DNA from: a virus | Taxonomy: Duplodnaviria; Heunggongvirae; Uroviricota; Caudoviricetes | Virus record (IMG/VR): IMGVR_UViG_3300042934_000563 | Strand: one strand, 5' to 3' | Length of the DNA stretch: 64,000 bases | Part shown: positions 353-52,921 of the stretch, in pieces | How positions within the stretch are numbered: position 1 is the first letter of the stretch | Layout: every line of letters begins with the position of its first letter | The notes under the pieces: generated by a model | What the model was told of the DNA's origin: nothing | The model's database searches: none | Seen by the model: the letters and a program-made list of their open reading frames with translations, nothing else | Made by a program: the position numbers and the translations under genes

Positions 353-1312
353 TTACTTTCGACCTCCACCGAAGGGGCGGTCCCATCGCTGCGTCATGAA
401 CGCGGAGACGCTGGAGGCGGTGGTGCCGCCGACGACTTTCACGGGGACCTGTGTCGGGGGTGTGTGCGCGGGGATCGAGTACAGGAAGTCTTCGGCGCGC
501 ATTTTGGCCCACTGGAGGCTGCCGTCCATGACGGTCAGCGTCTCGTGGAGCGGGTAGGTGTCGACTAGGAACTCTTGGCCTACGCCGAGGGCGGGGAGGG
601 TGTGGGTGACGTTCTGCCCTGCCTTGGGGTGCCCGACGGGGTAGCGCATGACGCTGTCCGGGAGGGTCCACGTTTGTGTGCTGGTGAGGGTGTTACTTGC
701 AAATTGCACCCAGCACTCTTGGTCGGCGTCGTTCTGGAGGATGAGGTTGCCGAGGCCGGTGCCGTCGGTGTTGGTCCAGGTGCTTACCAGCGTCGTCGAG
801 TACCACCAGGGGTCACATGCGACTGCGGTGATGGCCCAAACCATGTGCTTGGTGACCGACGGGTCGTAGGTGATGGTGTCGGAGGGCTTACGGTCCAGGC
901 GGATTTTGATCTCTCGCCAGCTGGTGCGGTCTGCCGTGTAGTAGCGGAGGTAGCAGTCGTGTTTGAAGCCGAGTACCTCCCACAGGAGGGAGTCGATGGT
1001 CTCCCACAGTTCGGGGGTGTCGCCCTTAGTTGCTAGTCGGAAGTCGAGGAGTCGTTCGTCGACGCGCGGGAAGTCGGACGGCGTCGAACCCTCCTGGTAT
1101 GCCCACGACTCACGTACGGGGGTGCGGGGTGCGTGCATGAATCCGGTGAAGCCGGACAGTAGGCAGATGCCTTGTCCGCCCATCTCCGGACCACAGATGT
1201 CGAGGACGATGAGGTCTACGTCGTTGGCGTCTCGGAGGATGAGTTGCATGACGCGTCCGGGGTGAAAAAGGCTCTGGACCATTGGTTTAGTTGTCCCCTC
1301 GGTAGCGGCCAT
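353..1312 (-). CDS. minor tail protein, likely distal tail protein (Dit-like) by position
   Basis: 319-aa ORF immediately downstream of the tape measure gene and overlapping its 3' end. Beta-rich composition with no enzymatic motifs. Position-based call. Confidence 0.45.
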   Translation of the reverse strand: MAATEGTTKPMVQSLFHPGRVMQLILRDANDVDLIVLDICGPEMGGQGICLLSGFTGFMHAPRTPVRESWAYQEGSTPSDFPRVDERLLDFRLATKGDTPELWETIDSLLWEVLGFKHDCYLRYYTADRTSWREIKIRLDRKPSDTITYDPSVTKHMVWAITAVACDPWWYSTTLVSTWTNTDGTGLGNLILQNDADQECWVQFASNTLTSTQTWTLPDSVMRYPVGHPKAGQNVTHTLPALGVGQEFLVDTYPLHETLTVMDGSLQWAKMRAEDFLYSIPAHTPPTQVPVKVVGGTTASSVSAFMTQRWDRPFGGGRK

Positions 1313-8629: not shown

Positions 8630-10207
8630 GTGCGGATTCTCATGGCTCAACTTGGCGATTACGTCTACGTGTATTGGGTGGTCGGTACGCAGTACGGCGA
8701 CGCGGGCAAGGTGACTGGTGAGGAGTACACGACGCACCTCGCCGAGTTGATCGAGTCGGGATACGGGATCCTCACGTCCAAGCCGACGGGACCGGGCACT
8801 ACGCCGCCTGTGAACCCCGACGGTTTGATGGTGTCGCGCAAGTTCGTGATGGATGCGTTTGCGGACTTCCAGACTGCCGTGGGTGCGACGTATGCGACTA
8901 CGTCCAGCGTTCTCCAGGCGCAAGCGGGAGTAGCGGCTAACGCGTCGCGGACGATGAACAAATTGCATCGCGGTATCGACTCGGTATCTGCCCTCTACGT
9001 CGGTGACTCCACCGGCAACGAACCCATCGAACACATCTATCTGGAGGCTAAGGCTCTCGGACTCCAGTTCCCGCGCTACACAGTCAATTACCGGCTCTGG
9101 AACGACACCAGTCGTACCTACGACGCGGCTGTCGTAGTCCAGACGGGCACCGGCACCACGCCGCCAGTCCTCACCATCTGGAATTGCTCGGTATCCGGTT
9201 TCGCCACTTTCCATTTCATCGGCGACCGATTCACGCAAGCATTCGAGACGTTGCCGGAGCCGCCCGACCTGATACTGGTCTCGCACTCCCACAACATGCT
9301 GGACGTATCGACGGCGAACCTCCGGGCCGCTTTCCGCCCCAACATGCTCGCCCTCACAGAGGAACTCACACAGATTTACCCGGACGCGGGCCTGATTCTG
9401 ATGTCCCAGAATCCGACGTACGTGACCGGACGTGAGACGTGGCAGTCGATCAAAGCAACCGAACTCCAGGGGCTCGCAGCGCGACGCGGCTACGGATTCA
9501 TCGACGTACACCAGGCATTCCAGGACACCGGACACCCGAGGGACTACGTGAAGTCGGACAACGTGCATCCGACCACCAGCGCCGACGCCCCCGCACAGCC
9601 GAACGGATCCAAGTTGTGGGCCGACACCGTCATCGGTGCCCTCAACTACCAGGGCGCGCTCTCATCGCCGACGCAACGCACGTCCTACTTCGCGGACACC
9701 GCCCGCGCGCTCATCCCCAACAGCGAATTTGCTACCTGGACGGACGGGAGCCCCCCGGACGGCTGGACCCTCACCAACGTCACAGCCGAAAAAGACACCG
9801 TCAACTTCGAGACAGGCACGTACGGACTGAAGCTGACGGCGGTCGCGACCGGTGCGTCGTACGCGCAGTTCTCCGCATCCCCGGCCTCGCTCGGTATCCG
9901 AGGACTCCTCTCCGGGCGGTACATCACCGTCGGCATCCGCGTATTCGTGCCAGCGACAAACACATTGGCAGGTGTCGGCATGTCGGTCCGTGACCAGACG
10001 GGAGCAGCTGGACAGCGACGCGTCGACATCTCGTCGTCGACACGCGGACGATTCCACTGGCTCTACGCCGTGAAAAAGATCGAATCCCCCGGATCGCTAC
10101 TGGTAGTTCAGCTCTCGCCGCAATGGTCCGGCACCTACGCCGCCACGAACACCATGACAGTTGATCGGATCCGCGCCGTAGAGGGAGACACCCCCCGGTT
10201 CGGCTAG
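8630..10207 (+). CDS. SGNH/GDSL-family hydrolase with tail-fiber-like N-terminal domain and C-terminal beta-rich (CBM-like) domain
   Basis: GDS block 'ALYVGDSTGN', 'LILVSHSHNM', and D-x-x-H block 'SDNVHPT', typical of SGNH esterases. N-terminal approximately 45 aa (GDYVYVYWVVGTQYGDAGKVTG..YTTHLAELIESGYG) are homologous to the N-terminus of the tail protein at 34879..35361. SD GAAGGG 9 nt upstream. Opposite strand to the surrounding structural operon. Confidence 0.75.
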   Translation: MRILMAQLGDYVYVYWVVGTQYGDAGKVTGEEYTTHLAELIESGYGILTSKPTGPGTTPPVNPDGLMVSRKFVMDAFADFQTAVGATYATTSSVLQAQAGVAANASRTMNKLHRGIDSVSALYVGDSTGNEPIEHIYLEAKALGLQFPRYTVNYRLWNDTSRTYDAAVVVQTGTGTTPPVLTIWNCSVSGFATFHFIGDRFTQAFETLPEPPDLILVSHSHNMLDVSTANLRAAFRPNMLALTEELTQIYPDAGLILMSQNPTYVTGRETWQSIKATELQGLAARRGYGFIDVHQAFQDTGHPRDYVKSDNVHPTTSADAPAQPNGSKLWADTVIGALNYQGALSSPTQRTSYFADTARALIPNSEFATWTDGSPPDGWTLTNVTAEKDTVNFETGTYGLKLTAVATGASYAQFSASPASLGIRGLLSGRYITVGIRVFVPATNTLAGVGMSVRDQTGAAGQRRVDISSSTRGRFHWLYAVKKIESPGSLLVVQLSPQWSGTYAATNTMTVDRIRAVEGDTPRFG

Positions 10208-15499: not shown

Positions 15500-16432
15500 C
15501 TACTTTTTTGCTGCGCGACGCTTGTTGAACTTCTCACGCAACGCCTTTCGCTCTTTCTCGTCGTCGTCCTCGTCGTCCTTGGGCTCGGGCTTCGACTCCT
15601 CGTCGTCCTTGTCCATCGACAGCTGGTCGCCGGATTCTTTTTTCTCGTCGTCATCGTCATCGTCGGCGTCGAACGGGGTGGCGGCTTTCTTTTTCTTCCC
15701 TGCCTCCAGTCCAGCGACGATGGCCTCCAGTTCGGCGACGCGGTCGTTGGTGCGGGTGAGGGCTGAGTAGATCGCCTGCTCCTGCTGGAGGTCGTACATG
15801 TCTCCGGCTCCGGCTGCGACCAGGGCGGTGATCTCGCCGGAGGCGACCATGGCGCGGGCCACGGGGAATCCGGGGGTGTTGACCTGGCAGACAGCGACTA
15901 GCTCCAGTGCGCCGTTGAACGGTCGCCAGTCGCCGGACGGGGCGGACGCTCGGAGGGCGCGGATCTGCTCGTCGGTGACGCCGCTGCGGATGCCGCCACT
16001 AATCCAAATGCCGTGTTGGTCCTCTCCGGCTGTCACGTCGGCGATGGCGGATGCGGTGTCGTCGTAGTGCTTGACGGCTTCCGCTGCGCCTGCGGTCATG
16101 GGGGCGTGTCCGCCTGCCAGGGTGAGCTGGCCGACGGGGGTGTCGTTACCGTCATCGAGTTTGAGGAGTCCGGTCTTGAACAACGCGTAGTCGGTGCGGC
16201 TGTGCGGGGGCTTGGTGCCGGGTGGGAGTCCGATGTGGTCGGTTGCCCACGTGGCGATGTGCCCTTTGATCTGCCCGTCGTCAGTGATGGTGAGCGGGGT
16301 GGGGCGGTCCAGCTGCGGATCCTGGTACCACTCCGCTGGAGGGAACAGGGGCCCACCGGCTGCGGTGAGGGATCGGGCTACCGTCAGAGAATCGTCCCTG
16401 ACTTCTTCGTAGAATCCGTCGACGATTCTCAT
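15500..16432 (-). CDS. scaffolding-like protein or capsid maturation protease (position-based)
   Basis: 310 aa, immediately upstream of the capsid gene. C-terminal 70 aa are extremely charged (KKKKAATPFDADDDDDDEKKESGD...EDDDEKERKALREKFNKRRAAKK). Confidence 0.45.
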   Translation of the reverse strand: MRIVDGFYEEVRDDSLTVARSLTAAGGPLFPPAEWYQDPQLDRPTPLTITDDGQIKGHIATWATDHIGLPPGTKPPHSRTDYALFKTGLLKLDDGNDTPVGQLTLAGGHAPMTAGAAEAVKHYDDTASAIADVTAGEDQHGIWISGGIRSGVTDEQIRALRASAPSGDWRPFNGALELVAVCQVNTPGFPVARAMVASGEITALVAAGAGDMYDLQQEQAIYSALTRTNDRVAELEAIVAGLEAGKKKKAATPFDADDDDDDEKKESGDQLSMDKDDEESKPEPKDDEDDDEKERKALREKFNKRRAAKK

Positions 16433-16526: not shown

Positions 16527-18152
16527 TTACTTGTTGCGTCTATCTCCGGGCCACATGCCAGCGGCTTCGCGGTGCCGGAGAGCGCACCAGCCCTCTGTCC
16601 GTGCGCCTAGATATTTGCGTAGTTGGCGGACGCAACGGGTGAAGTCTCCTTCTGCTCCCCAACGGATTTTGACTGCGCCTTCGCCTCGGATCCAATATTT
16701 GCGGAGGCTTTCAGCGCGGCGCTGTCCGGGCTTGTCATGCACGAACGGTTCGTTGCCTGCCTTGCTGGCTGCGGTGAGTGCCGGGATGACGACGTGGGTG
16801 AGTTCGGCGGCGCGGGCCCGCTGCTGCGCTAGGTGGCGGAGTCCGGTGGAGACGTGTGCGCGGCGGACGGTGCTCTCGCGGCGGGCTGCGTCCACGTCGA
16901 TCTGTGCCAGGGCTGCGGTGAGTGAGTAGCCGGACTGGTAACCCTCGTCGCTGTAGTACCAGCGTGTTGCTTGTTCGGTGTCGCGGTGGCGCATGTTGGC
17001 GACTGCCCGGAGTGATCGGCTGTAGGCGTCGAATGCGGAGGCGGTGACGGGGGGCTTACTGTTGGGGCCCTCCTCGCTGTCCTCGGGGGTGCGCTTGGGG
17101 CGGTTCTCCGGTGGTGCCGGGGTGCCGGGTGCTGCCTGCGGTTTGACCTTCGGTTCGGGCTTCGCTTTGGGGTCTACGCGGGCTTTTTGTTTCTGGACGC
17201 TGGGGTCCTTGGTGGTCGGTTTGGTCTCTACGACCTCTGCGCCTTCGCCTACCTTGGCTTCGCCGCCGTCCTCGCTCACCAGCTGGTTAGCACTGTTGGC
17301 GTCTACCTGGGTGATGATCTGCGACTTGGTTGCGCCGGTCAGCTCCACGATGGGAGGAGGGGTGGGGGACATGAACGATTCCAGGAGGACTTTGTCCTCC
17401 TGCCACATGCCGCCGTTGCGGCGGTAGACGATGGGGCCTTCGGCGATCTTGATGAGGTCCATGATTGCGGTGGTGTCGTTGGCGTCGACGATGGCGTAGA
17501 CGTTGCCGTCCTCGGAGGAGTCCATCGGGCCGGACGCAAGTAGTGGTGTTTCCGATAGGAAACACTGCGGTTCGCCGTAGGAGAGGAGTACACCAGAGAC
17601 TGCGTCGAGGTCGAATACCAGGGCGGATGCGGTAAATGCCAGCATCTCGGAGTCCAGTCCGACGCCGTAGGTGTGTTTGTCTTCTCCGGTGAAGTCGAAT
17701 ATGGCGGGCATCCAGCCAGCGGCGGTGAGGGCTTCGCTGCGCTCCAGGTTGCCGTCGGCGATGGGGAATCGGACAACTTGCCGGATAAGGTCCTCGTTGT
17801 CGTCTTGGGTGATGCCGACGTAGGCGTAGGTGTCCGGGTCGTAGTCCAGGCGGGTGAGTTGTTCGTCGCGGGTGCGGTCCATCTCGCGCATGACGCCGTC
17901 CACGATTTTATCGGCCCACGTGTGCCCGAGGTCGCCGCCTCGGAGCTTGCGCCCTTCGGTGTCGGTGGACTCGCTGATGCGGATGACATCGTCGATGTCG
18001 ACTTTGCCGTTGGCAAGTTTGTCGGCTAGGTCGTTGTCATGGTGGGTAGCGAGGGTCTGGTCTGCCAGAGCCATACTTACCGACGCCACCACGGCGGCGG
18101 GGACGTTGTATGTCCTCGCCGCTGCGGTGGTCTCTACGATGTCAGCAGACAC
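16527..18152 (-). CDS. hypothetical head-morphogenesis protein (possible protease) with Lys/Pro-rich linker
   Basis: 541-aa ORF between the giant protein gene and the scaffold-like gene. Central KPEPKVKPQAAPGTPAPP linker. No recognisable catalytic motif. Confidence 0.4.
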   Translation of the reverse strand: MSADIVETTAAARTYNVPAAVVASVSMALADQTLATHHDNDLADKLANGKVDIDDVIRISESTDTEGRKLRGGDLGHTWADKIVDGVMREMDRTRDEQLTRLDYDPDTYAYVGITQDDNEDLIRQVVRFPIADGNLERSEALTAAGWMPAIFDFTGEDKHTYGVGLDSEMLAFTASALVFDLDAVSGVLLSYGEPQCFLSETPLLASGPMDSSEDGNVYAIVDANDTTAIMDLIKIAEGPIVYRRNGGMWQEDKVLLESFMSPTPPPIVELTGATKSQIITQVDANSANQLVSEDGGEAKVGEGAEVVETKPTTKDPSVQKQKARVDPKAKPEPKVKPQAAPGTPAPPENRPKRTPEDSEEGPNSKPPVTASAFDAYSRSLRAVANMRHRDTEQATRWYYSDEGYQSGYSLTAALAQIDVDAARRESTVRRAHVSTGLRHLAQQRARAAELTHVVIPALTAASKAGNEPFVHDKPGQRRAESLRKYWIRGEGAVKIRWGAEGDFTRCVRQLRKYLGARTEGWCALRHREAAGMWPGDRRNK

Positions 18153-18170: not shown

Positions 18171-21100
18171 TTATGTCAGGAAGTCCCTACCGGGGCCCAT
18201 CGTCCGCTCGCCCGTGAGGGTCTGGATAATGCGCGCTCGGAATGCTTCTTTCGTGAGCCTACCGTGAGCATCCCAGTACGCCCGTAGCTCGTCAGAGGCG
18301 TTTCTGCGTGCCGTTGCCTCGTTCTGGGTCCAGAGCATCCGGGACAGTTCGTCGGACGATGCCAGCCCTTCGCCTGTGTCGGTGTGGCGGCGGTTTCCGT
18401 CGTTGCTGTAGAAGTATCCGTTGGTGGCGTTCTCTGCCCGGATGATTTCCTCCTCCAGTTCCTGGCGGTAGGCGGCTGCCAGCATCTCCTCGAATCGGTT
18501 GCCGTCGACGCGGCGCATGGAATAGTGCTGGCGGAGGTAGGAGGCGATTTCGCGGTTGAGGATCTTTTTGCGGTCTCCTCCGAATGCCTCTACCTCGGCG
18601 TCGATGGGGTTCATGCCTTCGGCCATGAGCCGGGACATTTTGTCCAACTTGCGCTCGTCGTCGGTGGCGGTCATGGTGCGGCGGATGTTTGCCACGTCAG
18701 CCCAATTGCCTTGCGATGCGGAGTCGAGTGCCAGCATGTTCAGCGTGTCGCTGTCCAGCCCCTCGTATTCCTGGGGGATGGTGGCGGTGGTGCCGTCGCG
18801 GTTGCCGCGCTCCTCCAGGAGTGTCCGCATGTCGTCGCTGTCCATCTGGCCCTCCTGGAGGTAGCCGTCCAGGAGTGCGTTGAGGGTGTCGTTGTCGATG
18901 TCAGCCCATTCGCTTACCGGGCTGCCCCACTCGTCGACGGGGCCGGTAGGCGCGTTGGCGGGCTCGGGGCGCGGCGGTGCGATCTCGTCCTCCGGTGCTG
19001 CCTCTTCGGGCGTTGCCGGTGCTTCGGCGGTGCGTCGGTCGACGACTGCGTCCACGTCGACTCGGGTTCCGGCGTCGCGCTCGCCGCGTAGACGCTCCAG
19101 CTCTTTTTTGTTGGCTGCGAGTTCTTTGCGGTCCTGGTCGGTGGCGGTGCCGTCTTGGACTTTGGCCTCCTGGCGGTTGACTGCGCCTTCGGTGGCGCTG
19201 ATGAGCGCTGCGTAGACGCGCGGTGACATGCCCTTCTTGCCTTGTGCGGCGGTGGTGACTGTCTCCGCTGCCTTGGGGGCGGGGGTCGGGTGCGGGGCCG
19301 GGGTGGTCTCTGCGGCCTCCGGGGCGTCGGGCTGTGCTTCCACTTTGGCGCGCATGTCTGCGAGTGCTTCGGCGGTGCTGGCCTTGCGTTCGGCGGAGCG
19401 GGGGGTCACCTTCGGTTTCGCTACCTTGGTGCGCTCGGTGCTGCCTTCGGCGATGAGCTTGTTGGAGGCGACGTTCCAGCGTCGGCGGGGTCCGCCGTCG
19501 GTGGGGGAGAGGTTGACGGTGCCGTCGGCGTTGACGCTGTCGACTCGCCACGTCTGGTAGCCGCGACCGACGTGGTAGCCACGGTCGGCGTAGAGGGCGT
19601 TGCCTGAGCTGTCCTTGGCGTTTCCGAGGTCGGCCTTGGCTGCGGGGGTGGCTTCGCGCTCGGTGACGGCTGCGGGTGCCGACGGTGCGGCGGCTGCGGG
19701 TGCGTCGATGAGCTTGGAGCGGTCCACGTTCTTCCGGTTGCGGGCTTTACCGCTGGCCGGTGCTGCTCCGGGGGCCGGTGCCAGGTTGACGGTGCCGTCG
19801 GCGTTTTCGGAGGAGATAACCCACCGCTGGTAGCCGCGTCCGACGCGGAACACTGGTGCGCCGTTGTCGTCTGCGGGTACGTCGGGGGTTGCCTTCGGCG
19901 GCTCGGGTACTTCGGCTACCTCGGGGGTGCGCGCCTCGGTGCCGTTGCGCTTTGCGTCGCTCTCGGCGATCTCCAGATCGGCGATGGCTGCCACTCGGCG
20001 GATCCGTGCCAGCTCTGCCTGGTGACGTTCCTGGCGGGTGCTGCCGCGTTGCTGGCCGATTTGTGCGGTGCGCTTCGCTTCGGCGTCGGCTGCCTCGAAT
20101 CGTGCGGCGGCGTTTTCGACGCCATGTTCTGCGTCGTAGTCGGCGCGGGCCTGGCGGACGCCTTCGGCGTATTCGCGCTGGTCCTGGAGGATCTGCTCCT
20201 CTTCGGGGTATGCCTCGCGGCGTGCCTGTGCGCTGGTGTTGTAGAGGTCGTTGACGCGGTTCACCCATGCGGCGCGGCTCTCGCCCTTGGCGGGGCCATC
20301 GTTGAATGCCGTCTGGTGTGCGTCGTCTGCCGCGATGAATCGTGCGGCGGCGTTCTCTTGGTCGGCTGCCTTGTCTGCCTCGTATTCGGCGCGTGATGCC
20401 TGTGCGGCTGCCTCGTTGTCGGCGTCGGGTGCGTCGGCTTCGGCTTTGGCGTTCTCGGCTTTGATGGCGTCGCGCTTGGCTTGCGCGCGTTTCGCTGCTG
20501 CCTCGCGGTCGTCCTTGGCGCTGGCTGCTGCCTCGGCGCTGGCCTTGCGGGACTCCTCGTCGGCTTCGCGCTGGAAGGTGTCGATGAGTCCGTCGAATGC
20601 GTTCAGCTGGCGGATGGTGTTCGGGTGGTTGCGTACCTCGTCGGAGGCGTCGCCGCTGAGGTAGTCGGCCTTCGCTGCCTTCGCTGCGTCGACGCGCTGC
20701 TGTGCGGGGCGATCCGAGGTACCCATGCTGTCCAGTTTGCTGCTGGTGGCGGCTGCTGCGTGCCGCTCTGCGTCGCCCTGGAGCTTGCGCTCGTCCTCTT
20801 TCTTCGGCTTCTCGGCTGCGTCCTCGCGCGCGGCAACTACCAGCTTGTGGAGGGCGTTTGCGCGTGCGACATGCTGCGCGCGCTGGCCGGTTTCGTGTCC
20901 GCCTTCGATGTGGTCGTCGTAGGCGCTGCTGAGTGCTGCCAGGCGCTCGTCGGGCGTCTGGTCGGCGTTGGTGACGCTGCGCTCTTGGGCTTCGGCCCAT
21001 GTCTGGGCCTGCTCCTCGCGGTCTCGCGTAGTGCGTCGGGTGGACTCTTCGCTGCGGAACCGCTCCTCGCGGGCCACGCTGGTCTCGCGGGCTGCGTTGG

Positions 21101-23426
21101 GGCTGTGGCGTCCGGTCTTGTCGCGCTCTTTTGCCTGGTCTTCCAGTACCTGCAATTCGTGGGCGATGCGGCGGAGTTCGGGCTCGTTGCGGCGGCGCGC
21201 GCTGGGGAGTCCGTTCTCGAACTGGAGCTGTCGACGGCGGGCGAGGAGGTCGGTGCGCTCGGGGTTGGCTGCTTCGTCGTCCAGGCGTGCCTGGTGCGCC
21301 TTCTTGGCATCGTCCAGTGCTGCCTGGGCGTTGGCGATCTCTACGTCCAGGGTGGCGTGGTTCTGGTCGTGCTGCTCCTGGGTGAATACCCCATCGGCTA
21401 GGCGTGCGTTGACGGTGTCGCGGAGGGCGTTGCCGTATGCGAGTTTTGCCTCGGCGGCTTTGACGCGGAGTTCGGTGCGGTCGGGGAGGCGGTCCGCTTC
21501 GCTCTCTGCCTGGGCGCGGGTGACTCCGAGGACTCGGGCTTCGTGGAGGGCTGCGTCGGAGCGGGTGCGGTCCTGGTCCTTCGGGGCTTCGGCGGCGGGC
21601 TTAGGTGCTTCGGCCTTAGCTGCCTTGGCGTCGTCCTTGGCCTTTTTCTCCTCGGCTGCCTTGGCTGCCTTGGCTTCTCGCTCCTCGGCTGCCTTGACGT
21701 TCTTCTCGCGGTGCTTTTTCGCGTCCTCCGCCATGCGGTTGTTGCGGTCCCAGCGGGTGCGGCGCTTGTCGGCTTCGGCGTCGGTGATCTCGCCGTTTTC
21801 GTATGCGTTCTGGTCGCGGGTGGCGATGGCGCGGCCTACGGCGATTTTCGCTTCGATCTGGCGGAGGCGGGCTTTTTCGGCGGCGACGGACTTGTCGTCG
21901 CTGTCGTAGCTGTCTGCGTCCTTGACGGCGTCTTTGAACTTGTTCTGAGCTGTCTGGACGGCCTTCTCTTCGGCCTCCGACTGTGCGAATCGTCGGTCGG
22001 CTGCGCGGGCTGCGGCGTCGTCGTCCTTCTTCGGCTCCTCGGCCTTCGGGGCGTCCTTCTTCGGTTCGTCGGCCTTCTTCGCCTCTGCTGCCTTGGGCGG
22101 GTTTTTCTTGTCCGCCTCGCGGGATGCCTTGATCGACTCCAGGCGGGCTAGCTCTGCGCGGTCCGTGCGGAGTTTGGCGGAGTTGCGGGGGCTGTTGGCG
22201 CTGCGGTCCCGAATCATGCGGGCTTCGAGCTGGGAGATGCGTCGACGGTGTCCGTCGATCTGGAAGTCCAGCTCGCCGTCGGACATGGTGGATGTCGGGT
22301 CGGCGCGGTTCTCGTCGGGCTTGATGCCGTTTTTGATCTTCCAAGCCTTGGCGGATTTTGCGCCACGCTTGAGGGCGTCGGCTTCGATGCTGTCGCCGGG
22401 GTGGGCGCGCATTTGTGCTTCGGCGAACTCGATGAGTTCGTCTAGCTCTTCGTCGCTCTTGCTGCGGAGGGACTCGCGGTTGGTGAGTCGCTCCAGCTTC
22501 TCGCGCTGGCTCTTGCCGTCTACCGGATACTTGGCAGGTTTCTTCGCCTCAGGGGCCTTCTCTGCGGCCTTCTCGTCCTTGCTGTCGTCGTCGGGGGCGT
22601 CCTCTACGTCGTCGGACTCGTCGCGGAGGACGTTGAGCCGTCCGGTGCCGGGGATGTCGTAGGTTTCGCTCTTGCCGTCTTCGTCTTCGACCGTGATTTT
22701 GACGCCGTTGGAGGTCTTCTGTACGTCGGTGACTACGCGGGTGGTGCCGTCTTTGTGGAGGAGTTCGTCGCCGTCTTCGAGGTCGGTGGCGCGGGTGACT
22801 ACGGGCTTGGATGCTGCGTCGACTTTGGTGGATCCGACGGACTTGGTGGGTGCGTCCAGTCGGCCCTTGGATCGGTCGGCTTCCAGCTTGCCGGTGCGGG
22901 CGTTGCGGACGATGGGGGTACCGATGGGGGCTTTGTAGCGGCGGACGCCTGCCTGGGTGCGGACGCGGCGGACTTTGTCGGCTGCGGCGATGAGGGCACT
23001 CATGGTTTCATCGCTGATGAAGTTCTCTTCGACGTACACCTGGGCTCCGGCGACGATGGCCTCCATAGCCTCGTCGTAGACGCCGTCTTTGTCGGCCATT
23101 CCGAGGATGGATGCGACTACGGCCTCGGCGTCCTCCTGGGTGGCGTTTTTGGCCTGGAGGTCTTCGACGGTGTCGGCGAATGCGTCGACTGCCTTGTCGA
23201 TTGCTGCGCTTTTGCGGAGTTCGTCCTCGGAGCGGATGGGCTGCTCTCGGAAGGATCCGACCTCGGTGGAATCCCAGTCCTTCGGGATGAGGTCGGAGCG
23301 TTTGAACGCGTGCGCCATCCGTGCCACGTACCAGCGGGCTTTCGCATGATCGGCGGCGGTTGCCCATTTAATCGCGGCCTCCAGATCGGATACCGACTTG
23401 ATGACTACGACGGGCTCGCTATTCAT
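18171..23426 (-). CDS. giant highly charged coiled-coil-rich virion-associated protein (about 1750 aa)
   Basis: Single uninterrupted frame. More than 1000 aa of A/E/K/R/D-rich low-complexity sequence. Internal duplicated motif 'VGRGYQRWVISSENADGTVNLAP' / 'VGRGYQTWRVDSVNADGTVNLSP'. Follows the portal gene. The ORF-track start at 23492 would run through the 23444..23489 hairpin, so an ATG at 23426 with an AGGGA SD is proposed. Confidence 0.65.
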   Translation of the reverse strand: MNSEPVVVIKSVSDLEAAIKWATAADHAKARWYVARMAHAFKRSDLIPKDWDSTEVGSFREQPIRSEDELRKSAAIDKAVDAFADTVEDLQAKNATQEDAEAVVASILGMADKDGVYDEAMEAIVAGAQVYVEENFISDETMSALIAAADKVRRVRTQAGVRRYKAPIGTPIVRNARTGKLEADRSKGRLDAPTKSVGSTKVDAASKPVVTRATDLEDGDELLHKDGTTRVVTDVQKTSNGVKITVEDEDGKSETYDIPGTGRLNVLRDESDDVEDAPDDDSKDEKAAEKAPEAKKPAKYPVDGKSQREKLERLTNRESLRSKSDEELDELIEFAEAQMRAHPGDSIEADALKRGAKSAKAWKIKNGIKPDENRADPTSTMSDGELDFQIDGHRRRISQLEARMIRDRSANSPRNSAKLRTDRAELARLESIKASREADKKNPPKAAEAKKADEPKKDAPKAEEPKKDDDAAARAADRRFAQSEAEEKAVQTAQNKFKDAVKDADSYDSDDKSVAAEKARLRQIEAKIAVGRAIATRDQNAYENGEITDAEADKRRTRWDRNNRMAEDAKKHREKNVKAAEEREAKAAKAAEEKKAKDDAKAAKAEAPKPAAEAPKDQDRTRSDAALHEARVLGVTRAQAESEADRLPDRTELRVKAAEAKLAYGNALRDTVNARLADGVFTQEQHDQNHATLDVEIANAQAALDDAKKAHQARLDDEAANPERTDLLARRRQLQFENGLPSARRRNEPELRRIAHELQVLEDQAKERDKTGRHSPNAARETSVAREERFRSEESTRRTTRDREEQAQTWAEAQERSVTNADQTPDERLAALSSAYDDHIEGGHETGQRAQHVARANALHKLVVAAREDAAEKPKKEDERKLQGDAERHAAAATSSKLDSMGTSDRPAQQRVDAAKAAKADYLSGDASDEVRNHPNTIRQLNAFDGLIDTFQREADEESRKASAEAAASAKDDREAAAKRAQAKRDAIKAENAKAEADAPDADNEAAAQASRAEYEADKAADQENAAARFIAADDAHQTAFNDGPAKGESRAAWVNRVNDLYNTSAQARREAYPEEEQILQDQREYAEGVRQARADYDAEHGVENAAARFEAADAEAKRTAQIGQQRGSTRQERHQAELARIRRVAAIADLEIAESDAKRNGTEARTPEVAEVPEPPKATPDVPADDNGAPVFRVGRGYQRWVISSENADGTVNLAPAPGAAPASGKARNRKNVDRSKLIDAPAAAAPSAPAAVTEREATPAAKADLGNAKDSSGNALYADRGYHVGRGYQTWRVDSVNADGTVNLSPTDGGPRRRWNVASNKLIAEGSTERTKVAKPKVTPRSAERKASTAEALADMRAKVEAQPDAPEAAETTPAPHPTPAPKAAETVTTAAQGKKGMSPRVYAALISATEGAVNRQEAKVQDGTATDQDRKELAANKKELERLRGERDAGTRVDVDAVVDRRTAEAPATPEEAAPEDEIAPPRPEPANAPTGPVDEWGSPVSEWADIDNDTLNALLDGYLQEGQMDSDDMRTLLEERGNRDGTTATIPQEYEGLDSDTLNMLALDSASQGNWADVANIRRTMTATDDERKLDKMSRLMAEGMNPIDAEVEAFGGDRKKILNREIASYLRQHYSMRRVDGNRFEEMLAAAYRQELEEEIIRAENATNGYFYSNDGNRRHTDTGEGLASSDELSRMLWTQNEATARRNASDELRAYWDAHGRLTKEAFRARIIQTLTGERTMGPGRDFLT

Positions 23427-23443
23427 GGAAGTCCCTATATCTG

Positions 23444-23489
23444 CTAGTTGCGTTGTTGCCGACAGTTTGTCAGTAGACAACGCAACTAG
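23444..23489 (-). terminator. 13-bp perfect inverted repeat (CTAGTTGCGTTGT...ACAACGCAACTAG) with nested GACAgttTGTC palindrome, between the portal and giant-protein genes
   Basis: Seen directly. Likely an attenuator, terminator or RNA processing site. Confidence 0.45.
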
Positions 23490-23501
23490 CAACTAAGAAC
23501 G

Positions 23502-25571
23502 CTATGCCGTCTGAGCTGCGGTTGTCTGCATGTTGTCGATGTCGACGCGTACCGCTCTGATGGTACGGCGGTTCATTGCTCGGTGGTGTCCGTCTAGCAG
23601 ATAGTCGCGTCCGCCCTTGGTGAGGACGATGGGGGGCAGATCCTTCGCTCCGGCTCCGCTGCCGTCGGTTTCGCTGCGGTCGCGCGGCTGTGTCGGGATG
23701 AGCTTGGAGGTTTGGAACAGTTCGAGGTCGGGCTGCTGCTCGCGGACGGTCGCTTCGGCGATGAGGCGGTATTCCTCTTGGAGGGTGTTGCCGTCGTAGG
23801 GGGTGGTGTAGAGCTTGGCCCCTCCGGCGCGGATGTTGTGGACGATGCTTTCGGCTGCTGCGGTGATTGCTTCGGCGTCGGCGGCGTCTGTTTCGTCGAC
23901 CAGGAGGTCGTTGGGGTCTCCGCCTGCGGGCGGTGCTGGTGTGCCGTCCTCGTTCGCTTCGGGCTTGTTGTAGAGCAACCGGCGCGCGCTGTCGGGCATC
24001 TCGTTCTCTTCGATGCTTTGGTCGCGCTGGCGGTCGGTGACGGACTTGAGGACGTTGTTGAACAGTGCGGTGACCAGCTCCGGGGGGAGGGTCGCTTTCT
24101 GCAACATGCGGGACGCAATTTCGAGCTCGCTGGGGGCGTCGGTGTCGCCGAAGCCGTGCGCCTGCCGCCATGCGTCTGCGCTGATTGCGTATTTGTCGAA
24201 CCCTTTGTCGGCGCTGTCGGCGGGGTCGGACTTGGTGACGATTTCCGACGGGTCGTACCAGACTCCGATGACGTTGAGGTCCTCGGCGGTGAGTTCAGGG
24301 AACTTCGCCTTGAGGAGGGGGCGGAGGTAGACGGACGTGAGGGCGTCGACCAGCATGAGCACCATCGGCTCGATGTGGCTTTTGTAGAGGCTCTCGTCGA
24401 TGTTCTTGGCGTTGGTGTAGCGGACGTTCGCCATGCCGGTAACAAAGTCTTTGGGCATGTCGAGGCCCTGGAGGATGCGCTCCAGGGCGCGGTCGGCGCG
24501 CTCGGTGAGGTACTGGTCCACTTCACGGTTGAGGGTGATGTAGCGGATTTCTTTGCCCAGTGCTGGCGGTCCGGTGAGGATCGTCGGGAACACGGTGGAG
24601 GCGTTGGTCTCGTCGGTGAGGGGGCCGGTCATGTTGTCGTAGATCGTTTCGACCAGTCCGAGGTTGTTTTCCTCGGCCTGCGCTACGTCCTCTTCGACGG
24701 AGTCGCCTGCCGCTTCCAGCCCGTCGGGGATGAACAGGATTCCGGCATTCATGTTGGAGCGGGCTACGGCGCGAATCATGCGCTGGAGGGTGATGAGTTC
24801 GTCGCACGCTTCGCGGAGTCCGAGCATGGACGATTCCGGCTCACCCGAGTAGCGGGGGTGTTCGCGCCATATGCGTCCGATGAACGTGTTTTTGGGGAGG
24901 ACTTTGTCGCCTAGGACGGATCCGTTGGTGGAGGTGGGGGTTGTGGAGGCGTTGCTGCGCTGCTGGCGGAGGAGTACCTGCCCACCAGCGTCGACGATGA
25001 TCTCGTTGGAGGACTTAATCATCCACTGGTTTTTGATCTTCACCAGGTAGCACTCACCGGGTACGGCCATATTAAGGGCGTAGCTGCGGAGGAATCCACT
25101 CATGCCTCCGGGGCCGGATGCGAGGTCGGCGATGAGCCGTTCGGCGTACTGGAGTACCTCCAGGCTGAGTCCGGGGGATGCCAGCATCTCGCGCTCGCCG
25201 TCGGTGTCCTGCTCTTTTTTGGTGAGGGACTGCTGGCGGCGGCGGTAGTTGAGGGTGGAGATGGGGACGCTGTCGGGGTCCAGGTTCAGTGATGCGTAGA
25301 TGCGGACGCGGGACATGACGGCACCGAGCATTCCGAAGCCGTATTTGATTTCGCCGATGGCGTCGTAGTACGCCCAAGCATCGTTTTGCCATTCGCTGTA
25401 GACGCGGTATCGGAGTTCGGCAATCGAGTCCTCGGACTTGAGGTTGATGCGCTGCCCGGATGCGACCAGGGGGCGGATGTGCCCGTAGGGGACGGACGAC
25501 GCTGCGCCGTCCCCGAACTCCGGGAATCCGTCAGGGTCGGATAGGGCCCTGGCGTTGTTGAAAATTCCCAT
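23502..25571 (-). CDS. portal protein with a C-terminal ParB/Srx-like 'DGHHR' segment
   Basis: 689 aa, positioned after the terminase and MuF-like genes, with SD AAGGA. C-terminal 'KGGRDYLLDGHHRAMNRRTIRAVRV' resembles the ParB-like nuclease-domain motif. Confidence 0.65.
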   Translation of the reverse strand: MGIFNNARALSDPDGFPEFGDGAASSVPYGHIRPLVASGQRINLKSEDSIAELRYRVYSEWQNDAWAYYDAIGEIKYGFGMLGAVMSRVRIYASLNLDPDSVPISTLNYRRRQQSLTKKEQDTDGEREMLASPGLSLEVLQYAERLIADLASGPGGMSGFLRSYALNMAVPGECYLVKIKNQWMIKSSNEIIVDAGGQVLLRQQRSNASTTPTSTNGSVLGDKVLPKNTFIGRIWREHPRYSGEPESSMLGLREACDELITLQRMIRAVARSNMNAGILFIPDGLEAAGDSVEEDVAQAEENNLGLVETIYDNMTGPLTDETNASTVFPTILTGPPALGKEIRYITLNREVDQYLTERADRALERILQGLDMPKDFVTGMANVRYTNAKNIDESLYKSHIEPMVLMLVDALTSVYLRPLLKAKFPELTAEDLNVIGVWYDPSEIVTKSDPADSADKGFDKYAISADAWRQAHGFGDTDAPSELEIASRMLQKATLPPELVTALFNNVLKSVTDRQRDQSIEENEMPDSARRLLYNKPEANEDGTPAPPAGGDPNDLLVDETDAADAEAITAAAESIVHNIRAGGAKLYTTPYDGNTLQEEYRLIAEATVREQQPDLELFQTSKLIPTQPRDRSETDGSGAGAKDLPPIVLTKGGRDYLLDGHHRAMNRRTIRAVRVDIDNMQTTAAQTA

Positions 25572-25581
25572 CGTTGCGTCC

Positions 25582-25890
25582 TTACAAGTTGAAGTCCTCG
25601 GATGGCAGTAGCCGGTCCGTGATGATGCTTGCTTCGCTGAGCGCCAACGCGGTTGCGATGGCCTTGCCCAACAAATTGTTACCTAGCGTAAGTAAGCATA
25701 GGGCCATTACACCAGCCCACATAGAGGAGCACTTGCGGCATGTCACCAGGTAACCGAGCTTTTTCTCCTCCGGTGGGAACACTTCCCAGAACTTCTCCCG
25801 GATGTCCTCGGTGATCTTGTCTTCCACCATCAGCGAGGTCAGTCGACGCGTCGCAAGGTATGCAATTAGGGCATTGACCAGGGTTTTCAT
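25582..25890 (-). CDS. small hydrophobic hypothetical protein (lower-GC moron between the MuF-like gene and portal)
   Basis: 102-aa ORF. Local GC is visibly lower than its neighbours. C-terminal hydrophobic segment MWAGVMALCLLTLGNNLLGKAIATALAL. Confidence 0.5.
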   Translation of the reverse strand: MKTLVNALIAYLATRRLTSLMVEDKITEDIREKFWEVFPPEEKKLGYLVTCRKCSSMWAGVMALCLLTLGNNLLGKAIATALALSEASIITDRLLPSEDFNL

Positions 25891-26691
25891 CTACGCAACC
25901 ATTCCAGAGAGCATCGACAATTAGCAACTAGGTGGATGGGGGCTGTGAGGTCGCCGGGGTATCGGATGTCTCCGGTGGGGGTGTGGAAGATGTCGCCGAT
26001 GGGGATGGCGGTTCCGTCGAGGTAGGCGTGTTCGGGTCGGACGCGGAGGTCGCGTTCGGAGATCCAGCGCTTGTGGGTAAATCCGAGTGTGGCGGCGATC
26101 CGCTCTTGTGCTCCGAACACTGCCTCTCGGGTGAGCCAGCGGGCGGTGAGGGTGGAGAACGATTCGACGCGGCTCTGTTGGATGCTGCGGGTGCTTGTGG
26201 TGGTGCTGCGTCGGTCGAACATGCTGTAGATGTCGGTGGTGGATGTCGTCGACGTTGTGAATGTGGAGATGCGTTGTGATGCGCTGTCGATGACGCTGGA
26301 GGCTACGTCGCGGGCTACGGCGTTGAGGTCGCCGCTGTATTGGCCGGTGCGGTCCATGCTTTGGAGTCGCCGGAAGATGAGGGGGTGGATGATGAGCATG
26401 AGTGCGCCGCGTACGTACTCGGTGATGCCGTTGGCTGCGCCTTTCACCACTTGGTATGTGGGGAACAGGACACCTTTGGCGATGACGCTGCCTAGGTGGC
26501 TCTCGTCGTCGCCGTCTGGTGTGAGTGCGTTAGCTGCCATGGCTGCGAGGATGGCGGTGACCAGGATGGGGGTGATGCTGCCTTCGGCCTGGTCTAGGGC
26601 CTCTTCCAACTCGGCGACCTGTGGGGACGGCGGGGGCTGCTGTGCGGGGGGTGTCTCGGGTGGCGGCTGCTGCGGCTCTGCGGGGGCGGTC
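25887..26691 (-). CDS. MuF-like head morphogenesis protein
   Basis: C-terminus 'RWISERDLRVRPEHAYLDGTAIPIGDIFHTP...IHLVANCRCSLEWL' matches the Mu F-like domain signature (D.RVRp.H..ldG... nCRC). The ORF-track frame extends to 26933, but its first approximately 80 aa look like out-of-frame junk, so a GTG start near 26691 is proposed. Confidence 0.55.
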
Positions 26692-26692
26692 A

Positions 26693-27112
26693 CTATGCGG
26701 CTTTCGGGGTCGGGCCGTGTGCGAGGGTGACGGCGTTGCCGAACGGGTTGTAGCTGCGGAGTCGGGATCCGCACGCGCACGCGCTGCTCGGTGTAATTGC
26801 TAGTTGCTGCCCTGATTCGAGGGTGAGGGTGATGAGGCGTCCGGTGTAGGTGTCGATGCTGGTGACGTTCTCCAGGACCATGCAGTCGGGGTCGGCTCCA
26901 CGGTTGTTGGAGGTCCAGGCTCCGGCGACCCATCCGCCTTCGGGGTTGGCGATGAGGAGGAATCGGGCTGCGGTTACGCCGTTGCTGCCCAGCGTGGCGT
27001 TTGCTGGGTACAGCGACACACCGATCCGTGCGACTCCGTCGGTTACTAGTGTGCTGAGGTCGTACACGTCGCCCCTATCGTCTGAACCGTGTGGGGGCTG
27101 TGTAGGCCCCAT
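26693..27112 (-). CDS. hypothetical protein
   Basis: 139-aa ORF overlapping the terminase 3' end by 38 nt. Confidence 0.4.
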   Translation of the reverse strand: MGPTQPPHGSDDRGDVYDLSTLVTDGVARIGVSLYPANATLGSNGVTAARFLLIANPEGGWVAGAWTSNNRGADPDCMVLENVTSIDTYTGRLITLTLESGQQLAITPSSACACGSRLRSYNPFGNAVTLAHGPTPKAA

Positions 27113-28793
27113 TGCCGCCCAATCCTATGTCGCGTTGTCCGATACGTAGGTGTCGTGATCGGCGCGCCCTGGTGATTACGCGCTGTTTGCCGTCCTTCGG
27201 TGTTTCGGCGTCGGGGTCCTCGGTGAGCGGGGACAGGTAGCCGCGTTTGCGGAGGTAGTCGTCTTCGGGGTAGCGGCCAGCGGGGTTGTGGTCGCGTACG
27301 TCGACGGACATCTCGGCGGGGTTACCGGCGATGGTGACCTTTCCGACCATCTCTTTCGGGGGTGCGATAAGTAGTGCGGTGACGGCGTGGACCAGGGCGT
27401 CGAGGCGGTCGGGGGATGCTAGTCCGATGCCGGGGGCCCAGCTGGTGAGCTGTCCTTCCAGTTCGGGGAACCAGTCGGCGTGGCGGACAGCTCCACGCTC
27501 GTAGGCGGTGCCGACGGGCTCCGCGCGCTGCTCTTTGGACACTGCGGCGTGGACTAGGACCACGGGGACGAATGGGTCCTCATGTTGGATGACCATGCGG
27601 ACCATTTCGCCGCCCTGGTTTTTCTCGGCGACAACTACGGCGCGGTATTTGCGCGCTAGCCGCACGACCTCTTTGGCCCATGTCTGCGGGGGCCCGAGGA
27701 GGGATCCGTCTTCGATGACGTATGAGGTGCGCTTGTAGTGCTTTTTCTCGCCGGTAGCGCCGACGACGACGATGCCGCATTCGTCCTTGGGGGCGCTGGA
27801 CACTGAGGGGTCTACGCCGATGACGCGGTGGGGGAGGCTCGTCCACCACATCGGGTTGTCTTCCGGTGGGGCGAATCGGTTGTCGTCGATGGTGGGCTGG
27901 TTGAGTAGTGCGCCGTCGACATCGGTGAGTAGCTCGCCCTCCAGCTCCTGTTTACCGAGGGCGGTTCCGGCGTACATGCTTTCGACCTGGTCTTTGTACT
28001 CCGCCGACAGGGCCTTGTTGGCGCGCGTCGGGCCACGTACCAGGAGGACGTTTTCCGGTTCGTCCTCGGCCTGTTTGACCAGGTCCAGGATCATCGGGAC
28101 ACGCTTCGGGGTGGTGGCAACGAAAATCTGTGGCTTGTGCTTGCGGACGGTGCCATCGGGGAGCGTCTCGTCGTACGTGAGACGGGTGAGGAGTTTGACC
28201 TGGTCGAATGCGTTAGCGAGGCCGGTGCCTGGGTTCGATCGGTATGCCGCAACCTCGTCACAGAAGCTGGCGTGCGCCTGGATACCTCGGAGAGAGTCGG
28301 GGCGTTCAGCGGAGTAGCAGAGGGCGGTGGAGCCGTTCGCCCACGTCAGTCGACGCGTCGCCGGGTTGTACTTCGGGCGTTCTGCGGGGTTGACGATATT
28401 CATGATGCCCGAGGATCCGAGGATCATAACGTCGCGGACATCCGAGGTAGTTCGTCCGAGGAGGAGTAGCCGGGATCCGGGATGCGACATCGCATAGTTG
28501 TGTAGCGCGATGGACAGGACGTGCGACTTACCCCAACCACGACCGGCCAGAGCAACAGTCATCCACACACTGGAGTTCGCTAGAGCGATCTGTGACGGGC
28601 GGAGCCAGAAATCGGAATCCCACTCCAGCTCTTCCATATCGACGCCCGCGAGGACCTTCTCCCGCTCCTCCTCGGACATCTGCGCCACCTGGTCAGCGAG
28701 AGACATGTCCTCGTCGGGACCGAAGAACAGGCCCACGTTCGCACCAGGCTTGTATGTGCTACGTGTCCGCTGCGGCGCGTCGTCATCACTCAT
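27075..28793 (-). CDS. terminase large subunit
   Basis: 572 aa. Walker A 'LAGRGWGKSH'. Conserved nuclease-half motifs. First gene of the leftward structural operon. Confidence 0.9.
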   Translation of the reverse strand: MSDDDAPQRTRSTYKPGANVGLFFGPDEDMSLADQVAQMSEEEREKVLAGVDMEELEWDSDFWLRPSQIALANSSVWMTVALAGRGWGKSHVLSIALHNYAMSHPGSRLLLLGRTTSDVRDVMILGSSGIMNIVNPAERPKYNPATRRLTWANGSTALCYSAERPDSLRGIQAHASFCDEVAAYRSNPGTGLANAFDQVKLLTRLTYDETLPDGTVRKHKPQIFVATTPKRVPMILDLVKQAEDEPENVLLVRGPTRANKALSAEYKDQVESMYAGTALGKQELEGELLTDVDGALLNQPTIDDNRFAPPEDNPMWWTSLPHRVIGVDPSVSSAPKDECGIVVVGATGEKKHYKRTSYVIEDGSLLGPPQTWAKEVVRLARKYRAVVVAEKNQGGEMVRMVIQHEDPFVPVVLVHAAVSKEQRAEPVGTAYERGAVRHADWFPELEGQLTSWAPGIGLASPDRLDALVHAVTALLIAPPKEMVGKVTIAGNPAEMSVDVRDHNPAGRYPEDDYLRKRGYLSPLTEDPDAETPKDGKQRVITRARRSRHLRIGQRDIGLGGNGAYTAPTRFRR

Positions 28794-30359: not shown

Positions 30360-30435
30360 GCCCCTATAGCTCAGTTGGTAGAGCTGCGGACTTTTAATCC
30401 GTATGTCGTAGGTTCGAGCCCTACTGGGGGCACCA
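30360..30435 (+). tRNA. tRNA-Lys (anticodon UUU), CCA encoded
   Basis: Folded by hand. Acceptor stem GCCCCTA/TGGGGGC. D-arm GCTC-AGTTGGTA-GAGC. Anticodon arm GCGGA-CTTTTAA-TCCGT gives UUU. T-arm TAGG-TTCGAGC-CCTA. 3' ACCA. Confidence 0.85.
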
Positions 30436-32586: not shown

Positions 32587-32784
32587 ATGGTCCGCCTACT
32601 CCCCCTCGCAGTGCTCGCAGTCCTCGGAATCATCGCCCTGGTCATCTACTACCGCAAGCACTCCGGCGAACTGTCCCCCATCGTCAAAACACTGTCCGTC
32701 ATCGTCGGAATGTTCGGTATCGCATTCGTCGTCATGTTCGGAATCTGGGGACTCACCGCATTAGGCAACCAGATCGGCAATTAG
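32587..32784 (+). CDS. small two-TM membrane protein (holin-like)
   Basis: 65 aa with two hydrophobic helices. Last gene before the convergent terminator. Confidence 0.45.
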   Translation: MVRLLPLAVLAVLGIIALVIYYRKHSGELSPIVKTLSVIVGMFGIAFVVMFGIWGLTALGNQIGN

Positions 32785-32807
32785 CAAGTAAGGTCACAGC
32801 AAGCCCC

Positions 32808-52578: not shown

Positions 52579-52584
52579 GGGCGG

Positions 52585-52908: not shown

Positions 52909-52921
52909 GGTGGTGGGTTCC

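Follow-up and report, generated by a model that had tools for sequence, protein, structure and literature searches.

A giant mosaic protein encoded beside the portal of an actinobacterial siphophage: a candidate internal head protein

The protein discussed in this article, referred to below as the giant, is encoded by an actinobacterial siphophage of roughly 110 kb, directly behind the portal gene, in a stretch of 64,000 nucleotides (nt) from IMG/VR virus record IMGVR_UViG_3300042934_000563; this whole stretch is what was analysed and I will call it the window. The giant is a mosaic of an N-terminal module (N-module), an SH3-like barrel, a charged middle, two modules named after their GRGYQxW motif, a helical hairpin and a C-terminal module (C-module), and this last module shows homology with the C-terminal end of the 'MuF-like minor capsid proteins' of actinophages. 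An earlier note on the same DNA had proposed either an internal head or ejection protein or else a scaffold or ruler, and the module homologies, synteny and length variation described here favour the first and disfavour the second. By analogy, I would give an even chance to the giant being a minor, low-copy, portal-proximal protein of the head interior that is released from the capsid along with the DNA, and this reading is favoured because of the homology of the C-module, the MuF and effector domains carried across the N-module family and the conserved synteny of the head genes. The first phage weapons that a host encounters are proteins carried in the head and brought into the cell together with the DNA, and to my knowledge the signals that load such proteins into capsids are known for a few model phages only, namely the T4 capsid-targeting sequence, SPP1 gp7 with the portal, and the P1 Dar proteins.

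The anatomy was derived from comparison with the metagenomic proteins P0002-P0005 (1323-2364 amino acids, aa) and from two AlphaFold2 models. The N-module is 44-56% identical to its relatives, and its helices at aa 13-149 are predicted with a local distance difference test score (pLDDT) above 90, while at the other end aa ~1512-1738 fold in the model as a helical domain (pLDDT ~85), in agreement with the ordinary C-terminal domain of ~250 aa that had been noticed earlier. Small five-stranded SH3-like barrels of 45-65 residues are modelled by AlphaFold2 at aa 206-269 and in both GRGYQxW modules; the first of these matches the SH3-like barrels of eIF5A, uL2 and Tudor proteins in Foldseek (best E 4.6e-3, probability up to 1.0), and the SH3-like matches of the GRGYQxW modules are all non-significant. 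The internal duplication of the GRGYQxW module described in the earlier note is real, since the two motif copies begin at aa 1196 and 1287 and lie in an 81-nt DNA repeat (D2, 19495-19575 and 19768-19848) whose copies are 74% identical, and both copies are kept in all relatives; the duplication is seen at the level of DNA and motif, and a self-blast of the protein finds no internal repeats at E<=0.01.

The middle of the protein is built from other material. Per 100-aa window it contains 32-49% charged residues and 53-67% helix formers, with little proline or glycine and with only 4-24% of the residues ILVFMWY, and it has no blastp similarity to P0002-P0005, no Pfam match at E<=1 and no solved-structure relative by sequence. 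Repeated K/P/E/A-type segments had been pointed out, and the program TRF recovers them with periods of 15 (22021-22077) and 33 (21619-21700). Similarly, the composition of the entire protein is as rich in A/E/K/R/D as had been claimed (A 17.8, E 9.8, R 9.6, D 9.4 and K 6.6%), with no cysteine and a net charge of -53. However, the description 'coiled-coil-rich' found no support in a crude heptad scan, which flags ~6% of the giant's residues, mostly in the N-terminal bundle and within the middle only at aa 501-533, and with so few hydrophobic residues the middle, going by sequence, looks more like charged single helices or disorder than like canonical coiled coils. Searched as a whole, the protein matches nothing in Pfam, in NCBIfam or among sequences with a solved structure; the N-module, the RVRT motif within it, the GRGYQxW barrel and the C-module are all without a Pfam or NCBIfam model; and in cultured phages these defining modules are labelled only 'hypothetical protein' or carry borrowed protease or MuF labels.

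The link to known phage heads comes through the C-module. When used as a tblastn query it matches 229 phage records (E down to 4e-12), and what it matches in them is only the very C-terminal end of gp11-type proteins from cluster K mycobacteriophages, annotated as 'MuF-like minor capsid protein' (older entries say 'capsid maturation protease'), together with a 390-aa protein of the Microcystis phage Mwe-JY05. In Fionnbharth gp11 the module occupies aa 775-903 of 919; a local C-module profile finds the giant with E 3.5e-67 (the query being within the profile) and Fionnbharth gp11 with E 9.4e-62, and Foldseek against the BFVD viral models is significant only for the MuF-like proteins of Fionnbharth (E 1.6e-9) and Fosterous (1.2e-6). 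The module is C-terminal in all full-length carriers found, and the giant possesses the extreme-C-terminal helical domain that is shared by the long actinophage 'MuF-like' proteins of PHROG 1752, 18477 and 12049. Its sole PHROG match is to phrog_1752 (positions 508-813 of 828, E 2e-6), and since this match covers only the non-catalytic C-module, the 'head maturation protease' label of that family is not transferable. Head maturation protease as an identity for the giant was therefore rejected: the match concerns the C-terminal part only, no protease family is found in the giant by Pfam or NCBIfam, and a separate protease-like gene lies at 15500-16432. A misleading label is thereby corrected.

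The same profile also finds stand-alone C-module proteins of 190-290 aa. One of these, P0010 (locus L008), is encoded in a head module behind the portal and a VG15/MuF-like gene, and in phrog_18477 a single polypeptide matches the MuF-like protein of the window at 164-295 and P0010 at 550-734, so that, when the window is considered as well, MuF and C-module are seen to be fused, adjacent or split between two genes. A further relative, P0030 (241 aa; L007, 8001-8726), has only the second half of the C-module, preceded by an N-terminal Cys/His-rich segment, and sits among SLT, NlpC/P60 and D5_N primase genes with no recognisable head module. Also, a gene of 65-72 aa (NPxxG...LAxxWxxGY, 37-42% identity) comes directly after the C-module gene in three unrelated phages (L001 6435-6632, which is Fionnbharth gp12; L008 6832-7032; L002 6510-6728).

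At the opposite end, an exhaustive profile search with the N-module returned 139 protein clusters, many with members of 1-4 thousand residues, and most of the hits fall either on the first 50 residues or on the RVRT motif, both of them short pieces. As a regular expression this motif was found in 73 of the 179 collected proteins, often in 2-4 copies each that are 250-650 residues apart, and it occurs also in GMA2 orf10 and in the Mwe-JY05 390-aa protein. It reads (R/K)VRTxxGxx(R/K)(Y/F)xxPIG, is present in 1-4 copies (for example in P0053, P0063, P0070, P0139 and P0148) and usually comes after an alanine-rich 'A-L-L-A-A-A' stretch, and it may act as a signal for loading or mark a site of processing. 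Alignment by hhalign pairs it with the 'TxxGxxRYxPGD' segment of MuF, without significance. The domains of proteins that have the N-module or RVRT motif include MuF, Zeta_toxin, 2_5_RNA_ligase2 (2H), GNAT, NUDIX, topoisomerase IB (Topoisom_I), ADPrib_exo_Tox (ART) and PG_binding_1, and some family members carry PKD/Ig domains. This repertoire and its genomic context match those of the polyvalent proteins, which have been proposed to be packaged in the head and injected (Iyer et al., 2017, PMC5512222), and a term search of that article found no description of the N-module, RVRT motif, GRGYQxW module or C-module. The giant has in common with the multi-effector proteins of portal and terminase neighbourhoods the modules that they share. 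However, polyvalent proteins are recognised by two or more effector domains, and searches of Pfam, NCBIfam and solved-structure sequences find no effector or enzymatic domain in the giant, its one PHROG match being non-catalytic. Inserts that by eye resembled ParB (in P0004) or ART (in P0005 and Phendrix gp66) were likewise unsupported by Pfam and by a search of solved-structure sequences.

Among cultured phages the N-module of the giant itself has no tblastn match; a more distant member of the family used as query reached gp69 of Phendrix/GodonK, and a third family query again gave none. Phendrix gp69 (260 aa) is a stand-alone N-module directly upstream of a homologue of the 541-aa gene that follows the giant in the window, and GMA2 orf10 contains an N-module and is then followed by another such homologue, which makes the pairing of an N-module gene with the 541-aa gene a conserved one. 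The 541-aa gene always comes after an N-module-bearing gene, in L003, L004 and L010 as well as in Phendrix (gp69 then gp70) and GMA2 (orf10 then orf11). The homologues are located at L005 9123-10547 for Phendrix gp70 and at L006 8946-10373 for GMA2 orf11.

Furthermore, the same architecture is found in six other metagenomic proteins. P0035 (3957 aa) and P0036 (3288 aa) share the N-module and the GRGYQxW pair and possess a divergent C-module, and because they too carry the architecture it spans 1323-3957 aa; the comparison of gene lengths among related phages that the earlier note had suggested thus gives a threefold variation. The middle is unrelated in the five homologues that were compared by sequence. 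A scan of IMG/VR with the N-module gave no confirmed relative. Four related loci were fetched, and the order of the head genes is that of the window in L003, L004 and L010 and, up to the end of its contig, in L009. The giant, which directly follows the portal in the window, adjoins it in these four loci with inserts; a Zeta_toxin/AAA_33 gene and small open reading frames (ORFs) lie between the two in L009 (2672-3805) and L010 (4555-5655), and these inserts in two relatives suggest that accessory genes often settle at the junction, as at a hot spot. Where a locus extends as far as the capsid gene, the giant has 1501-2364 aa and the capsid gene beside it 547-562 aa (559 aa in the window).

It is this comparison that makes it unlikely that the giant is a scaffold or core protein, that is, a protein which nucleates or sizes a large procapsid around the portal, binds the coat by its C-terminal domain and is degraded by the downstream protease before packaging. 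Its gene does lie between the portal and the protease and major capsid protein (MCP) genes, the protein is acidic and helix-prone, its conserved domain and conserved tail are strictly C-terminal as in scaffolding proteins, and a protease-like gene follows (phrog_18402, 1.4e-54). However, a scaffold would be expected to co-vary in length and sequence with the capsid protein, and the giants range from 1323 to 3957 aa with unrelated middles while the adjacent capsid gene is near-constant, so that the threefold length variation and the non-conserved middle speak against a scaffold and against a 'ruler' alike. Fionnbharth has the C-module on gp11 and, in addition, a separate scaffolding protein, gp13; the proteins with an N-module bear toxin- or effector-type domains; and the MCP of the window has an extra N-terminal stretch of ~150 aa (residues 1-145/160 are uncovered by tblastn matches to the capsid proteins of related phages) that may itself be a delta-type, scaffold-like domain.

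If the giant is instead an internal head protein, its life could be pictured along the lines of SPP1 gp7, the MuF family member that is brought inside the procapsid by binding to the portal, occurs there in a few copies and helps infection to begin (PMC6316719, PMC5576092). The giant would be made late, together with the portal, and would enter the procapsid near the portal by means of its end modules, whether the N-module with its RVRT motif, the C-module with its fixed tail, or both. It would then reside in the DNA-filled head, where the three SH3-like barrels, two of them with basic loops, might contact the DNA, and it would exit the capsid along with the genome at infection. In SPP1, mutants of gp7 fall to an infectious fraction of ~25%. 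The acidic, helix-prone middle of ~880 residues would be a freely evolving spacer or a cargo slot; other proteins with the same N-module have enzymatic effectors in other regions, and here the middle is one without a detectable effector.

Several points weigh against this reading. The presence of the giant, or of its close relatives, in the virion is deduced from genomic context, and docking to the portal is proposed by pure analogy. The conserved core of MuF has a C..C ... H..CRC motif; no MuF domain is found by Pfam in this cysteine-free protein, and the possibility that its end modules are divergent MuF domains was rejected by hhalign (probability 0.3% for the N-module and 2.1% for the C-module). 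There is also no detectable effector domain, so that the giant falls under neither the MuF nor the polyvalent definition in the formal sense; it appears to act most like a MuF-type or polyvalent internal head protein, yet it lacks the feature that defines each family. The folded end modules are without a relative of solved structure, as Foldseek searches of the PDB with both AlphaFold2 models gave no significant fold relative for either helical domain (best E for the C-terminal model 0.65), a net acidic protein is unusual as one that contacts DNA, and relatives with half a C-module occur outside a head context (L007), which suits an effector as well as an anchor.

The last of these points leads to an alternative in which the giant is the effector itself, the C-module (possibly with the acidic middle) being a delivered anti-defence or host-modifying domain and the N-module alone the capsid anchor. 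Variable C-terminal toxins are common in MuF proteins (PMC5576092), the C-module in Fionnbharth gp11 holds exactly the position of such a toxin domain, short C-module relatives occur outside head modules, and the 65-72-aa gene behind the C-module gene in three unrelated phages resembles an immunity or partner gene. However, I consider this improbable, as the C-module is conserved rather than polymorphic across hundreds of cluster K phages and one cyanophage, no catalytic family is recognised in it, and the small partner gene was searched for in the window and its close relatives and not found there. Very unlikely, in turn, is an external or envelope-directed role as a head fibre, decoration protein or wall-binding factor using the SH3-like barrels for adhesion: the three barrels and the PKD/Ig or PG_binding_1 domains of some N-module family members would fit it, but the SH3-like matches are weak and lead to barrels that bind nucleic acids or peptides (eIF5A, uL2, Tudor), neither a signal nor an anchor feature was seen in the giant, a mostly acidic chain of low hydrophobicity is atypical of a fibre, and the C-module is common to proteins that are annotated as internal minor capsid proteins.

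Returning to the giant as an internal head protein, a bolder version, which I regard as improbable, can be formulated: the RVRT motif with the N-module, together with the C-module, would be previously undescribed capsid-targeting or portal-docking signals of a large family of head-delivered proteins of Actinomycetota phages (at least 139 clusters at 50% identity), and the giant would be a 'cargo-less' member whose acidic helical middle, perhaps as a DNA mimic or by modulating ejection, is itself the payload. The N-module, the small barrels and the C-module do form a conserved frame, inside which the middle varies threefold in length. Should the end modules act as loading signals, this would account for the packaging of very large and changeable cargo by actinophages, and designed proteins could be loaded into phage particles with their help. 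Even if they are not, they mark a well-defined and unannotated protein family for those who annotate phage genomes.

An unbroken minus-strand frame spans 18171..23492, translation from the ATG at 23426 gives 1751 aa, and the single uninterrupted frame of ~5.3 kb reported earlier is confirmed by the ORF list, by collinear homologues and by the GC content at third codon positions (GC3), which is 0.77-0.82 in every 175-codon block of the gene, with the coding signature GC3 > GC1 > GC2 and with codon-position GC equal to that of the portal, capsid and terminase genes. The N- and C-terminal conserved blocks share one frame, which together with the uniform GC3 gives no hint of either a frameshift or a collapsed repeat, the outcome that the earlier note had named as fatal to its claim and that is now essentially excluded. 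P0001, on a 110-kb JGI contig, is a protein identical to the giant, and the ENA fragment P0006, from an independent data source, is 98% identical to it over the C-terminus. A low-complexity misassembly or a frameshifted fusion of several ordinary genes is thus extremely improbable, since the gene does hold low-complexity repeats but its frame is unbroken, its GC3 uniform, its N-terminal, module and C-terminal blocks collinear with those of six independent metagenomic homologues that share its architecture, and its C-terminus repeated in that separately sourced fragment. The start, which had been left ambiguous between 23492 and 23426, can be placed at the ATG at 23426, because the five aligned homologues all begin at the M1 of the giant (MNSEPVVVIKS / MSKPVVIKS ...), each has a start ATG with a G-rich Shine-Dalgarno-like run before it, and the alternative TTG at 23492 falls within the upstream hairpin.

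This hairpin is the strong nested palindrome that had been noticed at the junction of portal and giant, with perfect arms of 15 nt (23442-23456 and 23477-23491), an inner stem and an RNA folding energy of -37.7 kcal/mol (z -5.64), which is thermodynamically exceptional. It is found at the same place in the four related loci (L003 ~9930-9985, L004 ~9930-9985, L009 ~5915-5980 and L010 ~5928-5985), where 9 pairs have compensatory changes; the base of the stem is conserved as TTGCTA(G/A)TTG ... CAA(C/T)TAGCAGATA and the compensatory changes are in the upper stem. The hairpin has no U-tract and matches neither a terminator nor the sigma-70 promoter consensus, and RNA processing or stability, translational control and a protein-binding site are its candidate roles. 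A word related to the base of the stem, TTGCTARTTG, has 14 sites in the window at <=1 mismatch where 2.7 are expected (0/100 shuffles reach 14), with exact copies at 23483-23492, 25918-25927, 26797-26806, 32778-32787 and 41453-41462. It is often seen as tandem TAGTTGC heptamers, several copies lie just upstream of gene starts, and it may be a phage-specific regulatory repeat. The coordinates of all features are collected in Table 1.

Table 1. Features of the giant gene and of the surrounding head genes (positions are those of the window; residue numbers are those of the giant).
Feature	Position	Strand	Evidence or description
Coding sequence of the giant, complete (1751 aa + stop)	18171..23426	minus	ORF list, translation, uniform GC3
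N-module (aa 1-185)	22872..23426	minus	N-terminal motif aa 7-53, helical bundle, RVRT motif region
Short linear basic motif RVRTQAGVRRYKAPIG (aa 154-169)	22920..22967	minus	regular-expression matches in other phage proteins
SH3-like beta-barrel 1 (aa 206-269)	22620..22811	minus	AlphaFold2 strands, pLDDT ~95
Hypervariable charged middle (aa ~290-1170, ~880 aa)	19917..22559	minus	acidic, helix-prone, not common to relatives
AEAKKADEPKKDAPKAEEPKK low-complexity repeat (aa 447-467)	22026..22088	minus	TRF period 15, direct-repeat family D1
GRGYQxW module 1 (aa 1191-1241)	19704..19856	minus	predicted five-strand small beta-barrel, basic loop KARNRKN; pLDDT 80-91
GRGYQxW module 2 (aa 1283-1326)	19449..19580	minus	predicted five-strand small beta-barrel, basic loop PRRRWN; pLDDT 80-91
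Conserved helical hairpin 'KGMSPRVYAALI...' (aa 1402-1454)	19065..19223	minus	AlphaFold2 pLDDT ~96; kept in P0002-P0005
C-module (aa 1512-1750)	18177..18893	minus	all-helical, conserved D-F-L-x tail; widely shared core aa 1572-1750
Shine-Dalgarno-like AGGGA	23432..23436	minus	5 nt upstream of ATG 23426; G-rich runs at same place in relatives
Conserved stem-loop, 50 nt	23442..23491	minus	between portal stop codon and ribosome-binding site of the giant
Large terminase	27075-28793	minus	Pfam Terminase_6N + Terminase_6C
Small ORF	26693-27112	minus	no evidence of family
MuF-like head-morphogenesis gene	25887-26933	minus	Pfam Phage_Mu_F E 8.6e-5 (below curated cut-off); PHROG head morphogenesis ~1e-13
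Small ORF	25582-25890	minus	no evidence of family
Portal, directly upstream of the giant	23502-25571	minus	phrog_776, E 4.4e-99
541-aa conserved gene, directly downstream of the giant	16527-18152	minus	phrog_6439 C-terminal motif
Protease-like gene	15500-16432	minus	phrog_18402, 1.4e-54
MCP, 559 aa	13608-15287	minus	phrog_777

The order of the neighbouring genes, large terminase, MuF-like, portal, giant, 541-aa, protease-like and MCP, places the giant between the portal and the capsid-assembly genes, as the earlier note had said, and the MuF-like motif is indeed carried by a separate gene upstream. The window belongs to a siphophage, with a tape measure protein of 1847 aa, a minor tail protein, a head-tail adaptor and a major tail protein; megablast found no nucleotide similarity of the window to any phage record, and its MCP is closest to those of the Gordonia phages GMA2, Phendrix/GodonK and Forza (62-66% identity over ~73% of the length). 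The ~70-aa C-terminal motif of the 541-aa protein (..GDFTRC..WPGD.., phrog_6439) recurs in the 1668-aa PHROG 21406, and the protease-like protein of the window matches another stretch of this same PHROG 21406. An internal region of the tape measure (1287-6830) matches the PHROG endolysin families phrog_971 (1.4e-102) and phrog_16241. The plus strand has a single tRNA-Lys (anticodon TTT) at 30360-30435, between the leftward structural genes and the next block, and the region 52000-64000 holds only small ORFs (~90-175 aa) and has an unusually strong strand asymmetry, with a GC skew up to +0.47 and an AT skew of -0.46, followed by an abrupt fall after 62 kb.

How does the giant compare with systems that have a name? 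Fionnbharth gp11 (cluster K, 919 aa, PHROG 1752) and the protein of Gordonia phage Fosterous resemble it in being encoded directly after the portal, in having a long low-complexity or helical linker, and in ending with an all-helical C-terminal domain of ~170 aa with an AExATNGY...ASxEL..YW..GRLT core and a DFLQ-type tail. However, Fionnbharth gp11 begins with a VG15/MuF-like domain (Pfam PF25310, 3.5e-29), of which the giant has none, the MuF gene of the window being located upstream of the portal, and gp11 is half the giant's size and lacks the N-module, RVRT motif and GRGYQxW modules. The closest cultured relatives by capsid protein, Gordonia phages Phendrix/GodonK (gp69 and gp66) and GMA2 (orf10), have the same head module and in each a large variable protein after the portal, and GMA2 orf10 (883 aa, after the portal) includes a compressed N-module with the RVRT motif, but none of them has GRGYQxW modules or a C-module; in Phendrix the functions are split over gp66 (1479 aa, unrelated in sequence) and gp69, and GMA2 orf10 has a weak 2H/Acb1-like C-terminus (E ~1e-3, below the cut-off). 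The Mwe-JY05 390-aa protein, encoded just downstream of the portal, joins an RVRT motif to a C-module and looks like a minimal end-to-end version of the giant, although it comes from a cyanophage and is without the helical N-bundle, the SH3-like and GRGYQxW modules and the long middle; its 'capsid maturation protease' label has no support from Pfam (no family) or from sequence comparisons.

Polyvalent proteins, which include P1 DarB and MuF fusions (PMC5512222), are similar in being very large, modular, fast-varying and encoded beside portal and terminase genes, and differ in that the giant is without any recognisable enzymatic domain. SPP1 gp7, the prototype MuF minor head protein, also has a portal-adjacent gene and is the model for the mode of action proposed for the giant (PMC6316719), but there is no sequence or profile similarity between the two, and the giant, known here from sequence alone, is ~6 times longer. 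Finally, although they belong to podoviruses, Microbacterium phage Burro gp27 and the other cluster EK giants (>4400 aa), which are virion-associated according to polyacrylamide gel electrophoresis in sodium dodecyl sulphate (PMC7302621), provide a likeness by analogy only, since they too are giant, fast-diverging actinophage proteins encoded beside the portal with few recognisable domains.

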